Positions 5,368 through 56,024 of a stretch of 64,000 nucleotides of DNA are shown here, in pieces. The notes beneath the pieces were generated by a model, which saw nothing but the letters and a program-made list of their open reading frames with translations, was not told the DNA's origin and did no database searches. Made by a program: the position numbers and the translations under genes. The stretch is from positions 32,001-96,000 of the IMG/VR virus record IMGVR_UViG_3300020599_000004; one strand, 5' to 3'. The stretch comes from a virus. Each line of letters begins with the position of its first letter. The stretch's first letter is position 1.

Positions 5368-6291
5368 TCAGATAAAGTCCTTAGCCCTACGGCGAGCCGT
5401 GGATGCACTGATACCCAATGCTTCAGCTGCTGCACTCGCATGACTGTACGTCACCCCATCGATCACCAGAGGTTTTCTACTCCTGGCTATCGCCGCATCG
5501 ATCTTACCTCGCACACTGGCCTTATAGTCAGGGTCTGCCCACTTAGCCCGCATGGCTGCCCCATGCCGTTCTCTAAACCCCTCTATCTCCCATGTGGCAG
5601 CACCAGATTTCTTCTGGTTGGCAGCATACTCAGGATCTTCCCAGAGCCTCTTGGTGGCGCTGGATAACTTCTTCAGATACTCAGGGTCAGCTGCCAAGCG
5701 TTTCCCAGTTTCGACCCGTCGGGCTTTCACCGCAGGATCGGCGTAGATGTCCTTGATTTTGGATCGGAAGTCAGGGTCCTGCCATTGCGCCTTAGCTGCA
5801 TCGCTCAGCTTCTTACGGGTGTCTTCGTGAGCAGGGCGATACTCCTCGACCATGTGCCGCTGATTTACGCAGTAGGGGTCATTAAACAGCAGATCAACCA
5901 ATCGCTGCTCGACGGTCCTGGCTTCGCCTTCAGTGTTAGTGAAGAGGTAGATCACATCCGGCAACGCCCGTCTGCGGTCATACTCGCACTGGAGTTTCTG
6001 GTTGTAATGCTTGTTGGCCTTTAAGAAGTAAAGGTGCGTACGAGATCGTACCTGTAGGTAATAAGTGCTGCCGATGTAGAACTTACCACTGTTCCTGAAA
6101 TAGAGCACGTAAACCCCACATCGATCACCGGAGTACCTAATTCCACTGAGAGCAGGTCCCACTCCAGCAAACGCCTCAGGGTAGTTACAGTACTCCTCGA
6201 TCTCGTCATCCACCCAGCACCACAGCAGCCGGTGGAACCCGGCTGCTGTCCATTGCTTCAGATTTTCACCGCAATGCATCAGTTCTAACAT
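5368..6291 (-). CDS. free-standing GIY-YIG homing endonuclease (Seg-like), 307 aa
   Basis: GVYVLY...FYIGST, R-x3-H; W-x-DP helical repeats; C-terminal NUMOD1-like KPLVIDGVTY...AAEALGIS; GGAGA RBS. Confidence 0.88.
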   Translation of the reverse strand: MLELMHCGENLKQWTAAGFHRLLWCWVDDEIEEYCNYPEAFAGVGPALSGIRYSGDRCGVYVLYFRNSGKFYIGSTYYLQVRSRTHLYFLKANKHYNQKLQCEYDRRRALPDVIYLFTNTEGEARTVEQRLVDLLFNDPYCVNQRHMVEEYRPAHEDTRKKLSDAAKAQWQDPDFRSKIKDIYADPAVKARRVETGKRLAADPEYLKKLSSATKRLWEDPEYAANQKKSGAATWEIEGFRERHGAAMRAKWADPDYKASVRGKIDAAIARSRKPLVIDGVTYSHASAAAEALGISASTARRRAKDFI

Positions 6292-41787: not shown

Positions 41788-44700
41788 CTAGAACGTTGAA
41801 CGCCGTGCTACACTGACAGGCAGTGCTGGCATGGCTTGAGGGTTGCGCAGGAACGGTGGCACACCTGCCGTGGAGCTTTTAGGTGCCGCTACGGGTTGCG
41901 CTTGCGGTTGCCCTTTAGGCTCAGCGGTTTTAGCTTGCATCAATTGCAGGATCATACCCAACTTCTGGTCCATGGATTGCGACACTTGCAGTTGAGCATT
42001 CAGTACAGCGGTCACCGAGTCTACTGACGTGGTCAGCTGCTGGTTTTCCTTACTGGACTGTTTCTGCGCGATGGCAGCCTGCACCTGCGGCGTGGGCAAT
42101 GCCGGAGCATCGTTTGCCACAGGGGTGGTGAGACCCGCTGCTGCGGAAGGTTGTACACCCGTAGCGGCAGCGCTGTCCTTACCTGCTGCCACTGCATCGG
42201 CACCCATGGCTCCCATTGCAGGAGCATTGCTTTGGGCTTGTTGCGTATAGGTGCCATTGTTAACGCCTTTCATGGCTTTGGCCACTTCAGGGTCCATCTG
42301 CCCCAGGCTACCGGCGGTAGGCCCAGAAACGTTGTTCCCATTGGCGGTAGCAGCCGCTTCTGCGATTTTACCCACCTGATCCTTGTTGAGCACCGTAGAA
42401 GCCACATCCTGCCCCGGTTGTAGGTCATGCATTCGACGTCCTTTGTTCAACCGCGAGGACATCTCTTGCACCACTTCACCCACGGTACGTGGACGACCGC
42501 TCGCAAAGAAGATGGAAGAGTTCGCGCTCGGTACGTTGGAATCGACGTACTTGGTGGAGACGTCACCCGGTGGGGCGCTGAGGAACCTACCCGCACCATT
42601 CGGGCCAAGGAAGTGAGCCATGTACAGGTCGGTGTCGGTGATCTGACGACCTAGTCGCTTCTGAAGATAGTCCGCATTCTCTTTCAAGAACTCCATGCCC
42701 ATCAGCGCGTTTGCACGTGCATCAGTAGGAGGCGTTCGGGGATCAATCCCGTACTTACCGGCGTACTTCTCTATCATGCTCTTCCAAGTCCCTCCAATGA
42801 ACTGGAAGAGCCCCGTTGCCGTAGACGTACCCGCCTTGGCATTGGGTTTGAAGCTGGACTCGATTGCCGCCACTGTGGCTGCTGTGGCTGGGTCAAACCC
42901 TGCCATCTTAGCCGCAGCGATGATCGTGTCTCGGACACCGTTCCACCCATCACCCGTGGGCATCGGAATCTGGTTGATGTCACCGCCTGTACCGTTACCC
43001 GGTTGGGCCATGGGCATCCCACTGCCAACACCTGCCCCGTAGAACGGAATGGTGCCGGCGATTCCTTGTTTGGACTTGTTGAACGAATCCCCCATCTTTT
43101 GCAAGATGGATGTCCGTTGGGTGATCTCACCAGTCTTGTAGCCCGACAGCGGTGAGGGCGCCTGGGTGAAATCGACCTTAGCTTTGTTATCCTTGCTGAT
43201 GGGTCGATTGTTCTTCGGCGTGATGGCGTTAAGGAATTGCTCGGTGTACTTCTTCTTATCCTCAGGTCCTTTGAGGGCATCGATGTTACCTTTGATGCTT
43301 TCCTTGTCCTCGTTCAAGACATAATCCGGCCAAGGACTGGCTTTGACTTCCCAGATGGACACCTTCTCGTCCTGGAAGGTCGTCTGAGCGGCGGCTGTTT
43401 CTTGCAGCACTTCAGCCATTTCATTGCCGCTAAGCTTCTTCATGGCCAAATAGGCGTCGATCTTCTGACGTGCCCGTACCGAGGTGGCGTACTGCATCAT
43501 GACCGGCAGGAAGCGGAACCGATACCAGACGTACCAGTCAGTCTTAGCCCGCGTGTTGGTCGTGGAAACACCAAAACGCTGCATGGCGTCAGCCACGAAC
43601 TCATCTGAGCGCTTGTCCACGTTGGCAACGCCATCGCTATCGTACTCGATGATCGGCCAGACCTGGCTTTCCAGGTACATCAGGTTGTCGGCCTTGGATT
43701 TCTCCAGATCGACCAAGCCATAGATCTTGAACCGAGCAGCCATGGCAGCATCAAGTTGCGATGCAGGAGCTTTAGCAGGCTTGAATAGCTTACCTGCAAC
43801 CCAGTTGGCGATCACGCCACCACCGATACCACCCAGTAGCGTTCCTGCTGCGGTTAGCGCCATCTTGGCCAGGTTCGAGGGTGTTAGGGTGTCCTTGATC
43901 CCTTGCCAGAACCGTGACATGATCCCAGGTTTGCCCTGGGGACCAATACCCGTAATGGACGCCACGCCCTGATCCGTGGTCTTTTTGGCAAGCTCCGCTG
44001 CTTTCGCCTGTTCAGGGCTGGCCAACTTATCCTTGTCGCTACGTCCAGGACCTGCCTTGTAGTAGAACTCGGCATCGCTGACCCACGACTTCACGTCGTT
44101 GGCGTCGCAGTCCAGATCCCCAGAGAACGGACTATTGTCCGTGTCGTCGTAGGCATCTTCCAACTGTTCCAGCTTGGTGGCTTTGACGTAGTCCAGACCC
44201 AGTTCCTTGGGCAGTTTGTCGTCAGCTTCAAAGACTTGCGCCCCTTTAACCATCGAGTGCAGCGTGGTGGCATGAGAGAGGAAGACCGGCTTGAACCGCT
44301 TCTGGAACCAGATGATCCAGCGCTTGATACGCTCACGATCACCGGTTTGCCGTGGGTCGATTCCAAAGATCGGGAAGACTTGCATTGGCGTAATGGATTT
44401 GTCATCCAGCGTAGCCAGTTCTCCATCGTTGCCGAACCGGAGGGCTTTACCGCAGACCTCCTCCAGCTTCATGACGGCTTCAATTTCCTTATTGTCGTGC
44501 GGGCTAACCCCGTACTGCGCCATCCGCATGGAACCCAGCACCCCCAATTTCTTGTTGAGGTACTTGTACATCTTGTACGCACCGTAGCCAACGACACCAA
44601 CGGCAGCAGCACCCAGCAGTACAGGTGCCGAAACGAGACCCGCCAGCAGTGTGCCCAGTCCAGTGGCGACTGCTCCTGCTGCGGTGGCGATACCGCCTGC

Positions 44701-47700
44701 CACTGCCCCAGCCACGGGTAGAGCTTCACCCAGCCACGGCAAGAAGGGTAACAGTTTCAGGGCTTGTCGGCCACCCCATTTGAGGAAACCCCATCCCTTA
44801 CTTCCTGCCCACTTAGCCTTACCCAAGAACCCTTTGGAGTTTTTCCAAGTGCGTTTGGGCTTCCTTTTACCCTTACCTTTTCCTTTCCCCTTCTCTTCGC
44901 CATCACCACCGATAGAACCACCGATGTTGATGTCGCCATCATCCCGATCTTCCTCGATCTCTTCCTGACGCTGGAAGAACTTCTTGAAGAGCCCGCCCAA
45001 GCCATCGAGCAAACCACCGCTCGACTGCTTGCCCGATTCCGCTTTCGCTTCCTCGTCGGCTTTCTTCTTCTCCTTGCTCCGCATGATGTCTTGCCAGGAA
45101 TTATCCCGGATACCATCGTCATCGGAATCACCCAAGACTTTTTTCTTCACTGGGAAGCGAGCCTTAAGGTGTTTCAGGATTTCATCTTGGATGCTGGTCT
45201 GATGATAACTCAGGGAAACCAGGTCGTCCATCGGCTCGCCCGTGGATTTACCACGTGCTTTAATGCCTTTACCGGTGAAGAGGTTCTTAAGCCCCTTGAT
45301 GCCACCAGTGAGTTTCTTGGTCCACCAGTTGGTGAGCGTAAAGGGTAAACTGAACGCCGCCTTACCAAACTCTTTCAGGTTACCTAGCAGGTTGGCACCT
45401 TGTTCCATCTTCTTGCCAAGGAAGTCACGGAATCCACCGCTGTTACGCAGCTCCTCTGCCGTAACGACGATGTTACCCGCTTTGTCGACCACCGTGCCCT
45501 TGATGTCGTCGTAGGTACGGATAACCTTCTTGGTTGCTTGATCGAAGTACCCACCCTCTTCCATGAGGACAGCACGGATACGCGGGATGGACTCGTTGTT
45601 GATGTAACCATCCTTGATCTTGTCCTTGGTCCGACCAAATGCCGCGCCGATACCCGCTTTCGCCCCTTTCCACAGCAGGGCATAAGGCAGGGTGGAAGCC
45701 TGGAGATAACCCTTGGTCAGTTTGCCCATGAGGGAAGCTGCTTTACCTGCTAGCGACTTACCGTAGACATCCTTAAGACCTTGAGCATACTCTTCAGCAT
45801 CCAGCACCAGGTTACCGGCTTTATCCCGTACAGGACCGGTAATATCCTTGGCAGACTGGATCACCTTCTTGGTGTTCTCGTCGATGTACTCGCCAGCTTC
45901 GATCAACTTCTTACGCAAGGCCGGGACCTGATCCTGACCTTTGACGTAGATGTCAGCCACCTTATCCTTGGCAAAGGCTTTCTTCGTAGCCCACCAGCCC
46001 AGACCCGCAGTTTTCTTGGTAGCCCACCAGGCACCCAGTCCAGCGCCTTTATAGAGGTTACCCCACATGCGAGTGTAAGCACCGATGCCTTTGGCGCCCT
46101 TACCAAAGGCCCACTTGGCACCTCGCCACAAACGGTTTCCTTTGCGATTTTGGTTACCAGGTGCAGGCGGACCATCCCCTGCACTCCCTTCACCTCCTCC
46201 TTCACCGCAGCACTCTTTGGAGGCGATATACCCTAACAAGTCGATCATCTGGCCTGACAGCTCCAGTTGACTTTGACGACCGGTTTGGATAACCTCCTTC
46301 ATCGAGCGCAATTCACCGAGGATGATGCTCTCATTGCCCAAGTAGCGACTCAGCAAGAGATCACTGACTTCTTGCGTGCCGCCTAGCGTCGGCGTTTCAT
46401 CCAGCGGGCCAGGTCCAGGGGTAGGTGGTACAGGAGGTCTGCCACGCTCACCACGAGGAGGACGAGGAGGACGGCGACGCTTGCGCTTACCACCACGATT
46501 ACCCGGAGGTTGTCCCGCGGGTTTCTTATCGTCTTCTCCATCGAGCAGATCCCAGATGTTGTCGAAGTCGATCCGATCATTACGGCCATTGCCGCTGATT
46601 AGGCCGAGCTCACGCAGGTTGTCCAGACCGAACGCGTTGGCATAGCCGCGCAGGCGATCACCCACAGCCGGGATGATATTCTGCATCCGATCGAACTTAT
46701 CTTGCAGGCTGACCATGCGTTCGTGGTACTGGGTCGAGTTGTCTGCTTCATTGCCGTCGTAGTCCAAACCGAACTCATTACGGAAGAAGTAGCGCAGCTC
46801 ATCGATCGCCTCGTCCGAGAGGTTCTGGCGATAGTTCTCGCGTTTAGTGTAACGTCGAGGGTCGAAGGCCTCACCTCGTGCCAGATCACCGGTGATCTGC
46901 TTGAGCAGCACTTTGCGGTTACTTTCGGAGAGTATCTTATCCTTGTCGATATCATCCATCATCCGTTCGACTTCGGATTTGATGAGATCTGCTTCGTTCT
47001 TCGGCAGGATACTGGACTTGATGTCCTTGTGCAACACGCTCTTCTTGCTAAACCCACCTCTGGCGACGTTCCAGGTGTCCATGTCGTCATCCAGCTGACC
47101 GGTGGCGACACCTTTTACCCAATGGTTGATCTGTGCCAGGTAACCCGGAATCACTTCATTGATCGAGCGATGGGTCATCCGGTCAAAGATTGCAGGCTGG
47201 TCAGACGTAAGCAGGTGGTTATCGGCTACCTTGTCGTTCAGGTAGAACTTAGGCATGATGTCCTTGAGCAGTTGCGTCAAGGTGGAACGCGCACCATAGC
47301 CTTGAGTTTCCGATTTTGCCCAGCGGTTGAGCTTCTGAGGCGCGCCAGTCAACAGCCGACCCAGCTTAGCCCCACCCCGCCGCAGACCCTCGTGCTTCTG
47401 CAAGAAGGGGTTGGCCATAATCGACAGGTAGTCCAGCGCCGTCCCGGTCAACATCTGACCTGCTACCATACCGGAGTTGGTAGCTTTGTCCATGCCGAAC
47501 TCATCCCCACCGCCCATCCCCGCCAGACTGACAGTGTCAGCCAGCGGAGAGACGATACCTTGCACCAGACCCGTCAGGTTCTGCATCAGCTGGTCACGGT
47601 AGTTCCGCGTCCAGTTGGAGATGGTGTTAAGACCAGCGCCCGTCAGGCGCTGTTTGAGCATCTGACTGGCCAGTTCACTCTTATGGATTTTAACGGCATC

Positions 47701-48483
47701 AGGGAGCGCGGTGTTTTTGACCACCTTCTCCATCGCTGCCATCATTTTCTCGTTTTGGACGTTGGTGATGTCCAACAGGTCCTTGGCCACGAAATAATGA
47801 CGGTATTGCAGTTCCAGCGATTTCTGCTGGTACTTGATCAAGATGTTGTCTTGATACCCGACCAGGCGACTAATGCCTTTAGCGATGATGTTCAGCTGAC
47901 CGATTTGGTCTTTATGCTGATCGTCCTGAATCTTGTCACGGATCAGGCGGTTGGCATCATCCTTGTTCTGCTGCTGTGCACCCGCATCAGCTTGCAGTTT
48001 AAACATCTCACCCAGGACTTGGGTGATCTGGCTGTCTTCGTAGTCAGCTTTCAGTTTCTTGGCGTCATAAGCGGCACCTTGGCCGCCCATCGCAAAGTCT
48101 TCCAACTGTCGGCTGAGCCAATTACCTTTGCCGTTACCTGCAATTTTCTTGGCAAGTTTATCAGCAGAACGCCGTGCCACATCCGTGACTGGACGCAGCT
48201 CATCCGCGGCGGTATTGTATAGTTGCTTGGCGGACTCGAACGTGGCTTCCGCGACGTTAAGGCCTTGCGCGTACCCTTTGGGCAGCGCATTACGCAACAC
48301 GCGCTTGGCAGTGTCCGGACTCGTCAGCTCGCTTTTTATGCCACTGAGAAACCCAGCCCCCAGACGAGTGACGGCTTTACGGTCGTCCTTCGTCGGGTCG
48401 GGGTCTTTGAACTCAGGGAGATCGAAATCGAAACTGTCGAAGTCAAAATCATCGAGTTCGATATCATCCTTTTTACGTGCCAT
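41788..48483 (-). CDS. tape-measure/tail protein with lytic transglycosylase domain (phiKZ gp181-like), 2231 aa
   Basis: SLT motifs AAIESSFKPNA, ATGLFQFIGGTW, YMAHFLGP near the C-terminus; size and position divergent from the vRNAP genes. Confidence 0.88.
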   Translation of the reverse strand: MARKKDDIELDDFDFDSFDFDLPEFKDPDPTKDDRKAVTRLGAGFLSGIKSELTSPDTAKRVLRNALPKGYAQGLNVAEATFESAKQLYNTAADELRPVTDVARRSADKLAKKIAGNGKGNWLSRQLEDFAMGGQGAAYDAKKLKADYEDSQITQVLGEMFKLQADAGAQQQNKDDANRLIRDKIQDDQHKDQIGQLNIIAKGISRLVGYQDNILIKYQQKSLELQYRHYFVAKDLLDITNVQNEKMMAAMEKVVKNTALPDAVKIHKSELASQMLKQRLTGAGLNTISNWTRNYRDQLMQNLTGLVQGIVSPLADTVSLAGMGGGDEFGMDKATNSGMVAGQMLTGTALDYLSIMANPFLQKHEGLRRGGAKLGRLLTGAPQKLNRWAKSETQGYGARSTLTQLLKDIMPKFYLNDKVADNHLLTSDQPAIFDRMTHRSINEVIPGYLAQINHWVKGVATGQLDDDMDTWNVARGGFSKKSVLHKDIKSSILPKNEADLIKSEVERMMDDIDKDKILSESNRKVLLKQITGDLARGEAFDPRRYTKRENYRQNLSDEAIDELRYFFRNEFGLDYDGNEADNSTQYHERMVSLQDKFDRMQNIIPAVGDRLRGYANAFGLDNLRELGLISGNGRNDRIDFDNIWDLLDGEDDKKPAGQPPGNRGGKRKRRRPPRPPRGERGRPPVPPTPGPGPLDETPTLGGTQEVSDLLLSRYLGNESIILGELRSMKEVIQTGRQSQLELSGQMIDLLGYIASKECCGEGGGEGSAGDGPPAPGNQNRKGNRLWRGAKWAFGKGAKGIGAYTRMWGNLYKGAGLGAWWATKKTAGLGWWATKKAFAKDKVADIYVKGQDQVPALRKKLIEAGEYIDENTKKVIQSAKDITGPVRDKAGNLVLDAEEYAQGLKDVYGKSLAGKAASLMGKLTKGYLQASTLPYALLWKGAKAGIGAAFGRTKDKIKDGYINNESIPRIRAVLMEEGGYFDQATKKVIRTYDDIKGTVVDKAGNIVVTAEELRNSGGFRDFLGKKMEQGANLLGNLKEFGKAAFSLPFTLTNWWTKKLTGGIKGLKNLFTGKGIKARGKSTGEPMDDLVSLSYHQTSIQDEILKHLKARFPVKKKVLGDSDDDGIRDNSWQDIMRSKEKKKADEEAKAESGKQSSGGLLDGLGGLFKKFFQRQEEIEEDRDDGDINIGGSIGGDGEEKGKGKGKGKRKPKRTWKNSKGFLGKAKWAGSKGWGFLKWGGRQALKLLPFLPWLGEALPVAGAVAGGIATAAGAVATGLGTLLAGLVSAPVLLGAAAVGVVGYGAYKMYKYLNKKLGVLGSMRMAQYGVSPHDNKEIEAVMKLEEVCGKALRFGNDGELATLDDKSITPMQVFPIFGIDPRQTGDRERIKRWIIWFQKRFKPVFLSHATTLHSMVKGAQVFEADDKLPKELGLDYVKATKLEQLEDAYDDTDNSPFSGDLDCDANDVKSWVSDAEFYYKAGPGRSDKDKLASPEQAKAAELAKKTTDQGVASITGIGPQGKPGIMSRFWQGIKDTLTPSNLAKMALTAAGTLLGGIGGGVIANWVAGKLFKPAKAPASQLDAAMAARFKIYGLVDLEKSKADNLMYLESQVWPIIEYDSDGVANVDKRSDEFVADAMQRFGVSTTNTRAKTDWYVWYRFRFLPVMMQYATSVRARQKIDAYLAMKKLSGNEMAEVLQETAAAQTTFQDEKVSIWEVKASPWPDYVLNEDKESIKGNIDALKGPEDKKKYTEQFLNAITPKNNRPISKDNKAKVDFTQAPSPLSGYKTGEITQRTSILQKMGDSFNKSKQGIAGTIPFYGAGVGSGMPMAQPGNGTGGDINQIPMPTGDGWNGVRDTIIAAAKMAGFDPATAATVAAIESSFKPNAKAGTSTATGLFQFIGGTWKSMIEKYAGKYGIDPRTPPTDARANALMGMEFLKENADYLQKRLGRQITDTDLYMAHFLGPNGAGRFLSAPPGDVSTKYVDSNVPSANSSIFFASGRPRTVGEVVQEMSSRLNKGRRMHDLQPGQDVASTVLNKDQVGKIAEAAATANGNNVSGPTAGSLGQMDPEVAKAMKGVNNGTYTQQAQSNAPAMGAMGADAVAAGKDSAAATGVQPSAAAGLTTPVANDAPALPTPQVQAAIAQKQSSKENQQLTTSVDSVTAVLNAQLQVSQSMDQKLGMILQLMQAKTAEPKGQPQAQPVAAPKSSTAGVPPFLRNPQAMPALPVSVARRSTF

Positions 48484-48551
48484 GGAACATCTCCTAATGG
48501 CGCACCAAAACTGTCATATCAAGTCAACATTTACGGGAATTGAGGTGATTT

Positions 48552-50003
48552 ATGGACTTCAAAATGCTCCCGACCCAACTGTGGCTCCTGGAGCTTACGG
48601 ACGAACGGGTCAGGCATTTGCGACCTGTGACCAGCCTGGACATCTACGATGGTGCCACGGCCAACTTCCATGAGGATGGTCTGTACTCTACGTCGATCTT
48701 CGGCCGAGTCGGGACCCGTGAACGCGATGAGCGCTTCTCGTACATCGACATCAAGGCGTCTATCATGCACCCGAAAGTCTTCCGGGATTTGGTGGCGCTT
48801 AAAGGTCTCTATAAAGGCATCCTCTCGGGTAAAGAAACCGCTCGCTGGGACGATGAGATCAAAGACTTCGTCGCAGATAAGTCCTCGGCAGGGCAAACCG
48901 GCTATAGCTTCTTTATTAGCCACTGGAAAGACATCGTCCTGCGTCGCAACAAATCGCCTTCACGCCAACAGCGTGTGGACTTTATCGAGAAGTACCGCGA
49001 TAAGGCCATGACCAGCAGAGTGGTCGTTATCCCGGCAGGTCTACGTGACCTGGAAATCGGCGACAACGGTCAAGCAACCAAGAACGAGATCAATGACCTG
49101 TACTACAAGTTGATCTCGATCAGCAACACCATCATCAAGAACCGTGACATGGAGTCGCCAGCGCTGGATATCCCGCGCTATTCCCTGACCATGACCTTCT
49201 GCGAGATCTACGATCTGCTGGAGCAAATGATCCAGGGTAAGAAAGGTTTTATGCTCAACCGCTGGGGCAGTCGTAAAGTCTTCAACTCCACGCGTAACGT
49301 GTTGTCGGTGATGGACACCAGCTCTTCGGTGCTGGGTGAACCCAATGCACCTGGCTACGACGCCACAGTACTCGGTCTGTTCCAGACAGCGAAGGGTCTG
49401 CAACCCCTGACCATCCACCTGCTGCGCAACAGTTATCTGTCGAACATCTTTAGCGAAGGTGAATCGTCGGTGCCGTTGATCGACAAAAAGACCTGGCAAC
49501 AGGAGATCACCTCGATCGCACCGGAAACCCGTGACGAGTGGACGACCAAGGAAGGTCTGCTTAATGTGCTCAACAGTTATTCGGATGTCGATGCGCGTCA
49601 TCGTCCCGTAGAGGTAGAAGGCCGTTACCTGGCCCTGATCTACAAAGGCGACGACATGACGTTTAAGGTCTTCTACGACATCCGTGACTTACCGTCTCAT
49701 CTGGACAAGAAGAAGGTCAGTCCCATCACCCTGGTGGAACTGCTGTACCTTTCCGGATATCGAGAATGGAACAAGTACTTCGTCTCGGTTACCCGATACC
49801 CCGTCACGGGTGTGGAATCCATTTACCCCAGCCGTGTGTACGTCAAGACCACCACGGTGGGCGAGGTACGTTACGAGTTGGGTGAGGATTGGGAACCGAT
49901 GGGGGACGAATTCCGTGCGTTGGAATTCCCACGCGCTGACATCAATTCCTTCATGGATTCGCAAGCGCCACACTCCTCCCGTCTTAAAGGCCTAAACGCG
50001 GAT
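48552..50003 (+). CDS. rpoC: virion RNAP beta' subunit (phiKZ gp180-like), exon 1, 484 aa
   Basis: GAGGTG RBS; KKGF...RKVF segment; ends ...LKGLNAD, the first half of NADFDGD. Confidence 0.88.
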
Positions 50004-50356
50004 TAACAGTAAAAGCATATATCTACATGCTTTGAATAAGTCCCCTCCAGGCGAAATCCTGGAGTGATATCTCCTTAATTGCTGGAAACCCCTAAAGCTG
50101 CTCCACCACTGCGAGCCGAAAGGCAAAGCCATGGTTAGACAACGGAGCGGATATCACAATGGGCAATCAGCAGCCAAGCGCCGTACAGGTGAAGGTTCAA
50201 CGACTAGAGCGTAGCGGCTCGTACCCGACAGCGTCGGGGAAATGGGAGACACCCTATCCCGTAAGGGAGGGTGAAGATATAGTCTGTTCCTGTAGGAGAC
50301 TACAGGCGGGTGTCCTTGCACACCGGGTGGAAGTCGCGACTCCACTGGACAATAAG
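50004..50356 (+). ncRNA. group I intron 1 (353 nt, no ORF)
   Basis: 5' exon ends in U, intron ends in G; P AATTGCTGGAAA 50077, Q AATCAGCAGCC 50165, R GTTCAACGACTA 50195, S AAGATATAGTC 50274; removal restores NAD-FDGD. Confidence 0.93.
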
Positions 50357-50569
50357 TTCGATGGTGACACCGGTTCGGCCACCATTCTCATGACCCGTGA
50401 AGCATTGGAGGAGAATGAAGCGTACCTGGGTACCCGTCAGGCGTGGGTCTCGACCGATGGCAAATTACGCGCCAGCGCAGCCTACGATACCCTCGAACTG
50501 GTCGTACGCAACCTCACCGGCCGTTACGGCTACCAGCAAGAACAGCTTCGTAATCCGATGACTCAATAA
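50357..50569 (+). CDS. rpoC: virion RNAP beta' subunit, exon 2, 70 aa (spliced product 554 aa)
   Basis: Begins TTC GAT GGT GAC (FDGD). Confidence 0.88.
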   Translation, partial: FDGDTGSATILMTREALEENEAYLGTRQAWVSTDGKLRASAAYDTLELVVRNLTGRYGYQQEQLRNPMTQ

Positions 50570-50585
50570 GCAGAGAGCTAAAACC

Positions 50586-52385
50586 ATGTCGATGCTTCTC
50601 TATCCGCAGTATTACAGACGCTTCGGGGTGTGGCAACCTGGCCACATCATGGCCCCGCGTCTGTTCCCACTGTCCATCATGCGGTTGCCGCGTGACAGCG
50701 TGCTGCACTATCAAGCCGAGTCGGAGGCCGAATACGGTCCTCCGTCCGACGATCTGCTCCTGCAAGGCGTGCCGCGACTGACCTTTGTAGGGCATGTGAC
50801 CCAACTGACCAGTCTGCTGGGTAACCCACGTTCGGCCTACGTACCCCCAGGCCCGATGATCAATGAGTACCGTCGCCGGTACCGGAAACTGCGGCCGCTG
50901 AACAAGTTGGAGATCGCCGATCGGGAACCTCAGAACCTGATCGTGCAGAACTACGCGCTGCTGCCGCATCTGTACAAGTACATCCGCAGCTTCTTCACCC
51001 TGTACTACACCTGGTACAACCTCCAAGCGACTATGGTGAGTGGGATCAACGACATGTTGGGGCAGTCCAACCGCCACAACTACATCCAGATCCAGCTGCC
51101 CAAGGTCATGCCTTCATTGCAACAGCTGCGTCTGGCCCAGGCGCGTCGTAGCAAAACTCAACTGGAACCGTTCAACAACTTCGCTGCGTTGAATATCCTG
51201 GACTTCTTCACCTGGTTGGGTAAAGACCGGGAACATTCGCTCCTGTCGAAACTGCCTCACGACAAGCTGGACCACGTGGACATCATCTTCCGTCACGTCG
51301 GTACTTGGTTCACTGTCAACCTGGGCAAGTTGGACTCGTGGCGCCGTGCAACGGAGAAAGCGTCCACTGAGGGCGTTTCGCTGGAGTCCATCGCCGCATC
51401 CGGTCAACTGGGTGTGTCCATGGAACAGATGGCCGAACTGTCGGCCTTCCTGGAAGTCTCCATGGAAGATGTGCAGATTGATGCAGCGACATTCCAACTG
51501 CGCGTTCTGAAGATGCTGATGGCACTTTACGAGGCCAGCACGTTGGCAGGTTCTGATCAACCGAACAAACAGGTTGTGCAAGAACCTGAAGCGGTGGCAA
51601 CCGATCCGGCGGCAGTGGAAGAGAAAATCGAGATCGGCCACGACGAGACCAAGAAACAGCTCGATGAACTGCGTCAACCCATCTCCGACGAAGAGATGGA
51701 AGAACTCTCGGCGCTGGATAAAGAAACGGCAGCTGAACTCGATGCCGGTGAAGAGGACGATGGCACCGAGTACGATGAAGATGGTGTCATGATCATCAAC
51801 GACACGGGCGCCAAACCGGCGATGCATCTGCCGCCCGCGGTTAGTGCACCCAAGCCGCAGGTCGTTAAAACTCTCTCCAGTGCCATCGAAGAGAAGGTCG
51901 AAGCCCTGGCGGATCAAGGACTGCTCTCGGCTGCCGAATACCGAGCTAAGCTGCGTGCCGCAGTGGCGTACAAGTCCCTGAAGGACCCCTATGGCACAGG
52001 CCAGACGGTTGAAGATGCGCTGAGAATCGACCCCAAGTCCCTGGTGATCGATCAGAATGCCTCCTTTGTCGATATGCCGCAGGTGCTGGACAAGTCGATG
52101 CTCAAATCGACAGTCTCAGACATCGATCGTCAGTACGTCGAGAATGTCTTGCCGAAAGATATCCTCAACGCTGTGATGGCCGTACAAAATGCCGGCATCG
52201 CAGTGACGGACTACAATATCGAACGCGTGGTCGATGCAGTCAGTGACTTTGAGGTCCACTCGGTGCAACTGACGCCTGCGGTCGGTCGGCAGTCTACCAT
52301 CCGCTTCCGTGTTCCGCGGGTGACGACCGATGGCACCTACATGTCCAACGGTACACGCTACCGTCTAAAGAAACAGCGAAGTGAT
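50586..52385 (+). CDS. rpoB: virion RNAP beta subunit, large part (phiKZ gp178-like), exon 1, 600 aa
   Basis: Ends GTRYRLKKQRSD before an in-frame TAA that begins the intron. Confidence 0.85.
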
Positions 52386-52977
52386 TAAAGCCGATATCCT
52401 TGACGAATTAATGATATAATTACATTCGTCGATGGATATTGTAATGAGTAAGGTTAAGAGAGTAGTAGGCTGTAAAGGGTTCAGCAATGATGAATTCATC
52501 GCCATTGCTGAGAGTCGAAACACCTCTTGTCAGCAATTGCTAAAACAAACCCTGATGTAGCCGAACTGTTTTAACCTGACTCATCGTGCATGGTCACTGT
52601 GGCGTGGTAACACGCCACTAGCAAACCTACCTAATTGCGGGAAAACGTCTATAATCTCCATGGCTACCACTTGACGGTCGAAAGGCACGTCAACACCCAT
52701 CCCAGTAATGGAAGCGATGGGCACGGTAAAAACGTCCTGGAGAGACACAACCGGCGCAGCGAAGCCCCTAAATCCTACATGGACATGGGGTGTGCTCAGA
52801 GGCCATCGAACGCTACGGTACCTCAAAAAAAAGGTGCTTAATGACACCTGTATAAAGCCAGGTGGTCACCTAGGTGATTAAAGCCAGTAGAGTAGGAGGC
52901 TGTTACAGCTCCGAAACGGTAGGCACCCCACCCAGCTCAGGCTGGAGGGTGAAGATATGGTCCATCTAAGGGGGATG
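52386..52977 (+). ncRNA. group I intron 2 (592 nt) with enlarged L1 loop
   Basis: P AATTGCGGGAAA 52633, R GCTCAGAGGCCA 52794, S AAGATATGGTC 52952, terminal G 52977; IGS GTCACT 52593-52598 pairs with exon AGTGAT; splice gives KQRSD-LPLRK. Confidence 0.88.
52444..52560 (+). pseudogene. 38-aa ORF in intron 2 L1, possible homing endonuclease N-terminal relic
   Basis: MSKVKRVVGCKGFSNDEFIAIAESRN..., resembling the xxEFIxxA starts of phage endonucleases. Confidence 0.4.
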
Positions 52978-54423
52978 CTTCCCCTACGTAAGGTCTCCCC
53001 GACCCGTGTGGCACTGTCGTCGTATTACGCCAAGATTTTCGTGGATAAGTCCGACCGTGCCACTTTTAACTACGACAAGTACGTCTCCGACCAGATCGTA
53101 GCCAAGGGTCTGAACCAGGCTGACAGCACCATTACCGATATCCGCATCTCCAACGTGGCGGATAACACGGTTAAAGTGCCGCGGATCTATGCGGTGCTGG
53201 CTGCGCGGGTGGCTTCATTCAAGGCAGGTGGAGCAGAGTACTTCTTCGATTACCGCAATCGCTTCGAGAAGACCTTCACGCCAGAAGAACAGGCACTGGA
53301 ACGCGATGGTGCTGTGCTGGTCGGTCGGATTGGTCGTAATCCGATCATCGTGGACACGAACGATGTGTTCTACGAGGCCAGTGGAGGGGAACTGCGGGTA
53401 ATGGGACGGGCAGAAGACCTCTTTGCTTTGACGGCTGAGAAAGTACCAGCCCCCATGGCAGAGTTGAAGATCTTCAGCAAGGTCATTCCGCTGGGTGTCG
53501 TGTTGTCGTACATGCTCGGCTTTAATAACTTGGTCAATCTGCTGGGTGTTCGTCCCCGTCGTGTGCCTAACGGCCAGCGCATGAACCTCATGCCAGACGA
53601 ATACGCGATTCGTTTCCTCGATGAATCGCTGATCTTCCCGAAAGATGATGTCAAGTCGGCCTTGATCCTGTCTGGTTTCAACCTGTACCACGCTACCATT
53701 CGTAACTACAGCGTTTACAGCTTCGATAAGAAGGACATCTACCTCAACCTGCTGGAAAACTACGGTATCGGCATCCGTTATCTGCGGGAAATCGATCTGA
53801 TGACGGCGATGTTCATCGACCCGATCACCAAAGAGATTCTCCAGTGGATGAAGGAGCCCACGGAACTGGCCGCTCTGCTGATCCGTGCTGCGGAGATGCT
53901 GGTAACGCTGTACGTACCGGATCGAGTGGAAACCGCACCGGGCATCGTGGAAGGGATGGAGCGTGAACGGGGTTACGAGCGCTTTGCTGGGGCGGTGTAT
54001 TCCGAACTGGTGCGTTCGATCAGGACCTATAACGCCCGTACAGCCACCTCGTCTGCATCGATCAGCATGAACCCGCACGATGTTTGGACGACCATCGTGC
54101 AAGACCCGGCCTCTGAGCCCATCAACGAAGCCAACCCGATCCACAACCTGAAGGAAAAGGAGGTCATTACCTTCGGTGGGCGCGGTGGCCGTTCTCGCCG
54201 TTCCATGGTGGCAGATTCTCGACTGTATAAGAAGACCGATGAGGGCTTCATCAGCGAGGCAACTGTGGATTCCGGGGACGTAGCCATCATTACCTACGTG
54301 CCGCCCAACGCCAACTTCACAACGGTGCGTGGTACGGTGCGGATGTTGAACGAAATGACGGACGGTCCTTCCAGTCGTCTGTCCACCGCGGCATTGCTGG
54401 CACCGGCAGCTGACCGCGATGAT
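52978..54423 (+). CDS. rpoB: virion RNAP beta subunit, exon 2, 482 aa
   Basis: LPLRKVSP...; ITFGGRGGRS, ATVDSGDV; ends APAADRDD. Confidence 0.87.
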
Positions 54424-54902
54424 CAATTCTGAATATACGTGAAGTAAACACTCCGACTCGGTATTCTCGCGACTACACTGAATCTCCGACTCAAGACCGA
54501 AGGGAAGAAGGTCTTCTCGGATAACAAAACCTACACGTATATTTAAAACGGTCCGGGTAACCTGAGAGGGTTACTTGAATCTCCTCTAATTGCTGGAACC
54601 CGCTTAGAGCTGTCTCACCACAACGTGGTCCGAAAGGACGAGCGTGACGGTCTGAAAACGAGACGGATTGGGGAACCGTGGGTCCTAAGGACCCCTGTAG
54701 CAGCCAAGACCCTACCGGTGCTCTGCACCCATGGGTAAGGTTCAACGACTAAGGCCTTATCAGCCTGTACCCAGTAGCACTGGGGAAATGGGGAGCACCC
54801 TACTCACGGAGAGGGTGAAGATATAGTCTCGACATCCAGGGAAAGCCTGGAGCAGTGCTTAAGTGCACGGGTTCAATCTAGCGAGTTGGACTGAAGACTT
54901 CG
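54424..54902 (+). ncRNA. group I intron 3 (479 nt)
   Basis: P AATTGCTGGAA 54588, Q GCAGCCAAG 54700, R GTTCAACGACTA 54740, S AAGATATAGTC 54818, terminal G 54902; splice gives DRDD-PKRVNF. Confidence 0.9.
54448..54546 (+). pseudogene. 32-codon HTH-like (NUMOD1-type) relic in intron 3 L1
   Basis: TLRLGILATTLNLRLKTEGKKVFSDNKTYTYI*, in frame with exon 2 behind two stops. Confidence 0.5.
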
Positions 54903-56024
54903 CCAAAGCGAGTCAACTTCATTAACATCCAGCAGACTCACGGCATCAGTGCAGTGGGTTACCGTGCCACCCCGTTGCGTACGGGCTACGAACAGGTGTT
55001 GGCTCAACGTACCGATGACCTGTTCGCTACCGCAGCTAAGCAAGACGGCAAAGTGGTAGAGGTGACGGACTCGTCCATTAAGGTCGAGTACGCCGATGGG
55101 CAAATGGTGGCCATCGAGCTGGGTCGTAGGTTCGGATCCAGCATGGGCATGACCTTGCCACATGAGGTGGTCACTTCATTCAAGGTCGGTGATCCGGTAA
55201 AACGCGGCGACATCATCGCGTACAACAGTGGCTTCTTCGAACCGCTGTATGGCAATGAGAAACAAGTTGCCTGGAAAGCCGGTGTTATTGCTCGCACAGC
55301 GTTGATGGAAGCAAGCTATACCCTGGAAGACTCCTCGGCTATCAGCGAACGGATGTCGCGGTTGCTGGGCACACAAGTGACCAAAGTTAAGACGGTGCTG
55401 GTGAAATTTAACCAGTCCGTCCACAACCTGGTAAAGGTGGGAGATAGCGTCGATCTCGACACAATCCTATGCACCATAGAGGACTCTGTCACCGCGAACG
55501 CTAACCTGTTCGACGAGAAATCGTTGGCCACGTTACGTCTGCTCTCTGCCATGACACCCAGGGCGAAAACCGTGGGTAAAGTGGATAAGGTGGAAGTCTT
55601 CTATCACGGCGATTTGGAAGACATGTCCGAGTCGCTCCAGGAACTGGCCACTACGGCTGACCGTGACCGCAAGCGTCAAGCCCGGCGACTGGGTAAGCCG
55701 CCGGTAACTGGCATGGTCGATCAGTCCCTGCGGATCGATGGGAATGGCCTGGATCTCGACACGGTTGCGATCAAGGTCTACATCACCAGCACCGTAGGTA
55801 CTGGCGTCGGTGATAAGGCAGTTTTTGCCAACCAGATGAAGACGGTATTTGGTCGTGTTTTGACCGGTATCCATGAAACCGAATCTGGTGAGGAACTCGA
55901 CGCGATCTTCGGCTTTAAGTCGATCCAAGATCGTATCGTCCTGTCTCCTATGATCATCGGTACGACCAACACCCTGCTGCGCGTTATCGGTGAGAATGCC
56001 GCCGAGCTCTACTTCCAGGGTTAA
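54903..56024 (+). CDS. rpoB: virion RNAP beta subunit, exon 3, 373 aa (spliced product 1455 aa)
   Basis: PKRVNFINIQQ..., LEDSSAISE, GVGDKAVFANQMKT conserved beta motifs. Confidence 0.88.
   Translation, partial: PKRVNFINIQQTHGISAVGYRATPLRTGYEQVLAQRTDDLFATAAKQDGKVVEVTDSSIKVEYADGQMVAIELGRRFGSSMGMTLPHEVVTSFKVGDPVKRGDIIAYNSGFFEPLYGNEKQVAWKAGVIARTALMEASYTLEDSSAISERMSRLLGTQVTKVKTVLVKFNQSVHNLVKVGDSVDLDTILCTIEDSVTANANLFDEKSLATLRLLSAMTPRAKTVGKVDKVEVFYHGDLEDMSESLQELATTADRDRKRQARRLGKPPVTGMVDQSLRIDGNGLDLDTVAIKVYITSTVGTGVGDKAVFANQMKTVFGRVLTGIHETESGEELDAIFGFKSIQDRIVLSPMIIGTTNTLLRVIGENAAELYFQG

Follow-up and report, generated by a model that had tools for sequence, protein, structure and literature searches.

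Three group I introns without intact endonuclease genes in the virion RNA polymerase genes of an uncultured phiKZ-type jumbo phage

Two virion RNA polymerase (vRNAP) genes were found to be interrupted by three group I introns in a 64,000-nucleotide stretch of viral DNA, hereafter called the window (bases 32001-96000 of the 127.8 kb IMG/VR viral contig IMGVR_UViG_3300020599_000004, which is estimated to be about 47% complete). The introns are very probably self-splicing, immobile remnants of homing introns whose splicing is obligatory. Ribozyme homology, exact junctions, homologues at the same sites in other phages, a relic of an endonuclease gene and guide sequences that covary with the exons were all observed; intron gain followed by endonuclease loss is the history that these features suggest. 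The two genes are homologous to phiKZ gp180 (the beta'-like subunit, here gene A) and phiKZ gp178 (the beta-like subunit, gene B), and the virus that carried them, hereafter the source phage, is a jumbo phage of the chimallivirus type.

Ribozyme cores and splice junctions

All three introns matched the Rfam model RF00028 in full-length alignments (model positions 1-253). The scores for intron 1 (85.5 bits, E 2e-20, 50023-50306) and intron 3 (54.1 bits, E 6e-11, 54531-54852) exceeded the curated gathering score of 50 bits, the cut-off for membership. A group I search of the whole 127.8 kb record returned nothing beyond introns 1-3. The junctions proved exact in two kinds of alignment. PHROG profile coordinates were continuous across them, at 484/485 of phrog_2986 and at 574/575 and 1050/1051 of phrog_3148, and MAFFT alignment with the uninterrupted genes of Pseudomonas phage pPa_SNUABM_DT01 (DT01), the closest sequenced phage at about 55% protein identity, left no gaps at NAD^FDGD, QRSD^LPLRK or DRDD^PKRV (^ marks the intron). 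Conceptual splicing yielded stop-free products of 554 and 1455 amino acids, collinear with intronless homologues.

Each 5' exon closes with a GAT codon in phase 0, so that the last exon base is U in all three cases, and each intron ends in G (positions 50356, 52977 and 54902). Translation into the introns would terminate at once: the first codon is TAA in introns 1 and 2, and the third is TGA in intron 3 (CAA-TTC-TGA). The block CACCC...GAGGGTGAAGATAT(A/G)GTC occurs in all three introns. These features had been proposed in a sequence-only reading of the window, which described three phase-0 group I introns directly 3' of GAT at conserved motifs of vRNAP genes, a stop within the first three codons of each, a common P8 block, spliced products of 554 and 1455 residues, and a need for splicing to obtain full-length subunits. 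Rfam, PHROG and MAFFT bore this description out. The common block, written as RNA CACCC...GAGGGUGAAGAUAU(A/G)GUC, comprises P8 and J8/7-P7. This is what the Rfam model itself has as its consensus core, and presence of the block is therefore no sign of special kinship.

With the introns removed, the beta'-like subunit would regain its NADFDGD metal-binding motif, and the beta-like subunit would regain two conserved segments. It has been described that homing endonucleases aim at codons for critical residues and that in-frame stops are frequent in the associated introns, and the homing cycle has been outlined (PMC3984707). In the mechanism proposed here, each intron would leave the pre-mRNA through the usual two transesterification steps, initiated by guanosine, the 5' site being set by a U.G pair between the last U of the exon and a guide beginning GUC, and the 3' site by the terminal G. 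Splicing of introns 1-3 in vivo is a prediction from sequence. The coordinates of the introns, exons, guides and relic are collected in Table 1.

Table 1. Window positions of the introns, exons, candidate guides and endonuclease relic of the two vRNAP genes.
Feature	Positions	Strand	Description	Basis
Gene A exon 1 (A1)	48552..50003	+	484 codons, ends ...GLNAD (GCG GAT)	phrog_2986 positions 1-484, E 7e-184
Intron 1	50004..50356	+	353 nt, without open reading frame; splits the NAD^FDGD catalytic motif	RF00028
Intron 1 guide	50040..50043	+	GUCC, pairs with exon GGAU (4 bp; G.U at splice site)	pairing scan
Gene A exon 2 (A2)	50357..50569	+	70 codons + stop, starts FDGDTGS	phrog_2986 485-538; DT01 alignment
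Gene B exon 1 (B1)	50586..52385	+	600 codons, ends ...KQRSD (AGT GAT)	phrog_3148 1-574; DT01 alignment
Intron 2	52386..52977	+	592 nt	RF00028
Intron 2 guide	52593..52598	+	GUCACU, pairs with exon AGUGAU (6 bp)	pairing scan; family covariation
Gene B exon 2 (B2)	52978..54423	+	482 codons, LPLRK to DRDD (GAT GAT)	phrog_3148 575-1050
Intron 3	54424..54902	+	479 nt, at the site of the PhiPA3 gp210 intron	RF00028
Endonuclease relic	54457..54540	+	last ~28 codons of a gp210-like HNH homing endonuclease (intron 3 positions 34-117)	tblastn
Intron 3 candidate guide	54551..54554	+	GUCC, only 3 bp (GAU/GUC)	position conserved in homologues
Gene B exon 3 (B3)	54903..56024	+	373 codons + stop, starts PKRVNF	phrog_3148 1051-1420; DT01 alignment

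The surrounding locus agrees with the assignment of the genes. Across 41788-56024 the gene order is that of phiKZ-type jumbo phages: a minus-strand gene of 2231 codons resembling the gp181 tail-associated lysin is followed by the plus-strand gp180 and gp178 homologues, and the gp181-gp180-gp178-gp177 order is shared with PhiPA3, DT01, KTN4 and phiKZ. Exon A1, with the gp181-like gene syntenic upstream, is 57.5% identical to its DT01 homologue, and exon B2 was matched by 296 jumbo-phage records in tblastn searches. None of the exons gave a significant Pfam match, the polymerase subunits being too divergent, and PHROG profiles were used for this reason. Annotations of phiKZ and 201phi2-1 suggest that both subunits would be packaged in the virion. 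A megablast search of the whole region against the phage collection returned zero matches, indicating a phage without a close sequenced relative. The closest metagenomic locus is 62% identical (L016; the prefix L denotes loci of our collection).

Relatives at the same sites and loss of endonuclease genes

An experimentally characterized intron among the relatives is that of PhiPA3, a mobile intron directly after two conserved Asp codons of a vRNAP gene which encodes gp210 (Birkholz et al. 2024, PMC11620839). Intron 3 occupies the identical site: in PhiPA3 the HNH gene gp210 lies between gp211, which ends in NDD, and gp209, which begins (M)KRVGF. The two ribozymes share 70% identity across about 300 nt; their 3' ends are alike, and GUCC is the guide in both. 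They differ in coding content. PhiPA3 gp210 is a functional 330-residue HNH_3/NUMOD nicking endonuclease, whereas intron 3 retains only about 28 codons that match the C-terminus of gp210, and would support neither homing nor attack on competitors. Seven intron endonucleases match this relic with their C-termini, at 44-58% identity; E is 6e-4 for the one from L075 and 7e-8 to 1e-5 for the others. Six of the seven are gp210-like HNH enzymes from introns at site 3, that of intron 3, or at the adjacent site 3b described below. The remaining ~290 codons of the intron 3 endonuclease gene have been deleted, and no gp210-like match was found elsewhere in the whole record.

No intact homing endonuclease gene is present in any of the three introns. 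The sole open reading frame lying wholly within an intron is one of 42 codons in intron 2 (52432-52560), whose product matched neither Pfam nor the seven intron endonucleases; a 136-codon frame (50159-50569) begins in intron 1 and continues into exon A2. In intron 2, 207 nt are inserted between the 5' splice site and the guide, in the P1 loop; the relatives of this intron hold their endonuclease genes at this place (starting at about nt 45 of the intron). Intron 1 is compact. A free-standing homing endonuclease of 307 residues is encoded on the minus strand at 5368-6291 of the window (Pfam GIY-YIG, E 1e-6), with a C-terminal DNA-binding domain like that of I-TevI. Its gene is outside the introns and separated from the vRNAP genes by 43 kb, and the enzyme has no relation to the HNH relic.

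Counterparts of the other introns are found in further phages. Intron 1 shares its gene and site with the phiKZ gp180/gp179 intron, which was predicted by Mesyanzhinov 2002 (as cited in PMC11512511 and PMC10914365): in both, GCG GAT closes the exon, the intron opens with TAA, the second exon begins FDGD and the guide is GUCC. The phiKZ intron is 1443 nt long and encodes a 357-residue HNH protein, gp179, whereas intron 1 has no reading frame, and the similarity of the cores is modest (54 bits). Like intron 3, the intron of 201phi2-1 between gp273 and gp274 is a form without reading frame (336 nt) at site 3 of the gp178 homologue. It is the single group I intron found in that genome, whereas all three sites are filled in the source phage. 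Two spliced reads were reported for it, and earlier proteomics had pointed to it (PMC11512511); the gp273/274 annotation states that the two pieces, split by a mobile element, form one joined product identified by mass spectrometry. In Vibrio phage vB_VmeM-Yong XC31, sites 1 and 2 of the two genes are both occupied, site 2 lying between ...AQKVD and PIRK, and the ribozyme at site 2 shares 73% identity with intron 2 across 197 nt. Unlike the source phage, Yong XC31 carries endonuclease reading frames in both introns and its site 3 is empty. Its vRNAP is annotated as six hypothetical proteins (L015, MK308674.1 125000-136500), whereas the true arrangement is two genes and two group I introns; these introns are unannotated in GenBank, and the site-2 enzyme has DUF723/CapR zinc-ribbon matches. 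Multiple group I introns at conserved residues of essential genes, again with early in-frame stops, are also known from Staphylococcus phage Twort and from td, nrdB and sunY of T4, although in other host genes and with a likeness of general features (PMC3984707).

The distribution of these insertions was surveyed in 80 IMG/VR loci obtained with an exon B2 alignment query (a single-protein scan had given only two). Occupied and empty alleles of the same site were both found, as is typical of mobile introns. Site 1 (xAD^FDGD) was occupied in about 9 of 75 loci, this count being approximate because it derives from a regular-expression recount with a few uncertain calls (L057 and L085, and the 3' boundary in L087). 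Site 2 was occupied in 10 of 79 loci and site 3 (DD^PKRV) in 7 of 70. A fourth site, 3b, which lies 12 nt beyond site 3 and after a GTT codon for Val (PKRV^NF), was occupied in 5 of 70, including L016. The site-3b introns of L016 (approximately L016:8965-10319), L041 and L053 hold an HNH reading frame of 347-352 residues, and those of L058 and L059 are of a short, 375-nt form. Short forms without reading frame (335-480 nt) and endonuclease-bearing forms (1.1-2 kb) were both seen at the surveyed sites. At least one intron was present in about 25 of the 80 loci and none in about 55 (~70%). Most of the nearest relatives have no intron. DT01, the loci L009 and L010, and about 15 loci at 52-56% identity are without any of the three introns, and in L016 (62%) an intron is present solely at site 3b. 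Introns fill all three sites in at least two other loci, L030 and L087 (the site-1 intron of L087 was recognized through Rfam). The three introns are accordingly not special to the source phage but occupy recurrent homing sites, and triple occupancy by endonuclease-free introns is uncommon, not unique.

The sequence-only reading had regarded the three introns as related to one another. This stands for introns 1 and 3, which form one family (64% identity over 255 nt, both with GUCC immediately 5' of P2), and fails for intron 2, which belongs to a separate site-2 lineage (70-74% identity to ten introns at the same site), has just a 50-nt core block in common with intron 1 and gave no match to intron 3. 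The nearest relatives of intron 1 occupy site 1 in L025 and L030 (68-69% along the full length); they are followed by an intron in the T7-like RNA polymerase gene of N4-like Pseudomonas phages (74% over 261 nt) and then by the phiKZ gp55 intron. For intron 3 the nearest are the same site-1 introns of L030 and L025 (74%, ~300 nt), and then the PhiPA3 site-3 intron. The closest relatives of each intron include introns at the same site in other phages. Spread of the three introns within the source genome was considered and rejected, since none is the nearest relative of another.

Members of the intron 1 family were also seen in other polymerase genes. In Pseudomonas phage Pa_WF01 (L007:2720-3968) one follows DACCSG in the T7-like RNA polymerase gene and carries a GIY-YIG reading frame, and in phiKZ gp55/gp56 (L008:1960-3340) one interrupts the non-virion RNA polymerase (nvRNAP) beta' gene, apparently at N^ADFDGD. 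A single family thus inhabits catalytic motifs of unrelated RNA polymerases, with guides adapted to each site.

Guide sequences and the shared GAT codon

Maintenance of the ribozymes was examined by covariation in the site-2 family. RNAalifold on eleven site-2 introns predicted 84 pairs, of which 52 showed compensatory changes. The site-2 guide, located 5' of P2, tracks the exon sequence: GUCCCC accompanies GGGGAU in four loci, GUCCGC accompanies GCGGAU in two, GUCGCC with GGCGAU and GUUCGC with GCGGAU occur in one locus each, and GUCACU with AGUGAU is found in the source phage only. The compensatory changes, together with five covarying guide-exon pairings, indicate selection for splicing. 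An exact 12-nt copy of the 5' junction of intron 2 (52381-52392, GTGAT/TAAAGCC) was noticed within the intron at 52874-52885 (two matches in the window, none expected). This copy forms the 3' strand of a P1-like GUCACC/GGUGAU hairpin, and its AUUAAAGC part is kept in almost all site-2 introns.

Guides at the other sites behave similarly. GUCC lies immediately 5' of P2 in the site-1 homologues as in intron 1, and in Yong XC31 GUCCGC matches the exon GCGGAU; a candidate P10 strand in intron 1, UUGAA at 50032-50036, would pair with UUCGA of the 3' exon. The site-3 introns of PhiPA3, 201phi2-1, L030, L042, L061 and L095 have GUCC at the position of the candidate guide of intron 3, for which the pairing scan also gave an alternative 4-bp exon pairing at 54570. 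Members of the intron 1/3 family at other sites have matching guides: GUUC for GAAU in phiKZ gp55 and GCCC for GGGU in the N4-like phage. In L042 the guide GGUC matches GACU and the intron lies one base later.

The sequence-only reading had further held that the introns target Asp codons, and this part did not survive. The pattern itself is real: GAT accounts for 68 of the 376 NNT codons in both genes, and under a null of random NNT codons three of three would be GAT with P ~0.006. Recognition of Asp codons was rejected as its cause, because relatives follow Asn, Gly or Val codons or begin one base into the next codon; their insertion points come after AAU (phiKZ gp55), GGU (the N4-like RNA polymerase gene), GUU (site 3b) or GAC U (L042). 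A U at position -1 was found in every occupied allele. The shared GAT is a consequence of intron chemistry and shared descent: it arises because U is obligatory at -1, because the target sites code for conserved Asp residues and because the guides are of the GUC type.

Two side observations concern site 1. The displaced intron of L042 (L042:5151-5548, exon GAC U / intron) shows that what sets the splice site is the U at -1 and not the Asp codon. In the intronless IMG/VR loci (within L016-L095), the first Asp of NADFDGD is encoded by GAC in 51 of 55 cases and by GAT in 4, and GAT is the codon in the intron-bearing alleles; empty alleles at site 2 (41 GAC, 26 GAT) and site 3 (30 GAC, 28 GAT) are more evenly divided. 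One possible cause of the GAC bias at site 1 is co-conversion with the intron; another is that a U which allows insertion or cleavage is selected against.

Origin and persistence of the introns

Taken together, these results argue strongly for the following history. The ancestors of the three introns would have been mobile: homing driven by their endonucleases would have carried them from one co-infecting relative to another, into three conserved sites that recur. Each would later have lost its endonuclease gene, a C-terminal relic being left in intron 3, and all would now be immobile passengers late in the homing cycle. Their persistence may be ascribed to the fact that imprecise loss would destroy an essential enzyme.

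Several points weigh against this account. The score of intron 2 (46.7 bits, E 1.4e-9, 52572-52987) falls slightly below the RF00028 gathering score; its same-site homologues in L030 and L055 exceed it, at 55.3 and 54.4 bits. Intron 3 has an exon pairing of just 3 bp and a large insertion in the P5 region; the same weak 3-bp GUCC pairing is found in the site-3 introns of PhiPA3 and 201phi2-1. A search with the seven endonucleases detected no relic in introns 1 or 2. For these two, loss of the reading frame is deduced from their relatives, and they could instead have arrived without one by recombination. In phiKZ the predicted introns gave no spliced reads by ONT-cappable-seq under the conditions tested (PMC10914365).

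The sequence-only reading had additionally suggested that the three splicing events gate the packaged polymerase as a timing or stress checkpoint, and this suggestion found no support. The introns would then have been kept or co-opted because splicing responds in its efficiency to the GTP level, to Mg2+, to the growth state or to the stage of infection, and thereby times or limits production of the packaged polymerase. It is true that all three group I introns of the record, itself about 47% of the genome, sit in vRNAP genes whose function requires splicing, and that T4 introns have been reported to splice in dependence on translation and growth state (Sandegren and Sjoberg 2007, as cited in PMC10914365); the missing phiKZ reads, from one set of conditions, could be read in the same sense. 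However, the roughly 70% of surveyed loci without introns, together with DT01 and the other intron-free relatives at 52-56% identity, and the different site used in the closest locus, L016, form the sporadic pattern of selfish elements and not that of a conserved regulatory device. Endonuclease-bearing versions at the same sites elsewhere are a signature of homing, and no intron feature specific to the source phage suggests a sensor. A checkpoint is therefore considered improbable.

Retention of introns without reading frames for a benefit is rated slightly lower still, although the benefit is plausible: by splitting the recognition sites, they would make all three vRNAP hot spots immune to the homing endonucleases of rival jumbo phages, of the kind that PhiPA3 directs against phiKZ with gp210. 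Insertion of an intron breaks the homing site and renders the allele uncleavable (PMC3984707), gp210 cuts the intronless gp178 gene of phiKZ and lowers phiKZ fitness (PMC11620839), relatives carry endonuclease-bearing introns at all three sites, and the ribozymes and guides of the source phage are still under selection. Lethality of imprecise deletion explains retention equally well, however, and a synonymous change, such as the GAC codon of most empty site-1 alleles, may confer resistance without an intron. As a speculative proposal, doubtful although less so than either of these explanations, introns without reading frames may act as a defensive 'vaccination' of the vRNAP operon, protecting the phage, through occupation of every common homing site, from intron endonucleases wielded as weapons by rival nucleus-forming phages, and the intron 1/3 family may in addition retarget, through small changes of guide, between the catalytic motifs of unrelated RNA polymerases (vRNAP beta', vRNAP beta, nvRNAP beta' and the T7-like RNA polymerase of N4-like phages).

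That the intervening sequences are dead and unspliced, with the five exon blocks translated apart as extra split subunits, is scarcely credible: jumbo phages have naturally divided beta and beta' genes (PMC7598289), a reading frame starts with the ATG at 52957, 21 nt before exon B2, a GTG lies at 54954 inside exon B3, and the phiKZ reads are again missing, but the break would fall inside NADFDGD and part its first Asp from the other two, exons A2 and B3 have no start codon at their true beginnings, complete covarying cores with exon-tracking guides would not be maintained without splicing, and the mass spectrometry and proteomics of 201phi2-1 speak for a joined product.

Loss of mobility from once-mobile introns thus remains by far the preferred explanation. 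Group I introns in the RNA polymerase genes of chimalliviruses, and the action of PhiPA3 gp210 in competition between phages, were already known. No new mechanism is revealed here; the source phage contributes new members to intron lineages that, like their host genes, are known. Intron-split vRNAP genes are routinely mis-called as fragments, and the comparative data gathered should be of use in annotation and in the choice of phage pairs for competition experiments. The survey provides a first occupancy map of four recurrent sites in two genes, each filled in about 7-13% of scorable loci, together with the GAC-biased empty alleles of the NADFDGD site and the guides that covary with exon codons. 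To this the source phage adds a case of introns without endonucleases at all three common vRNAP sites, which would represent a snapshot of a late stage in the homing cycle.

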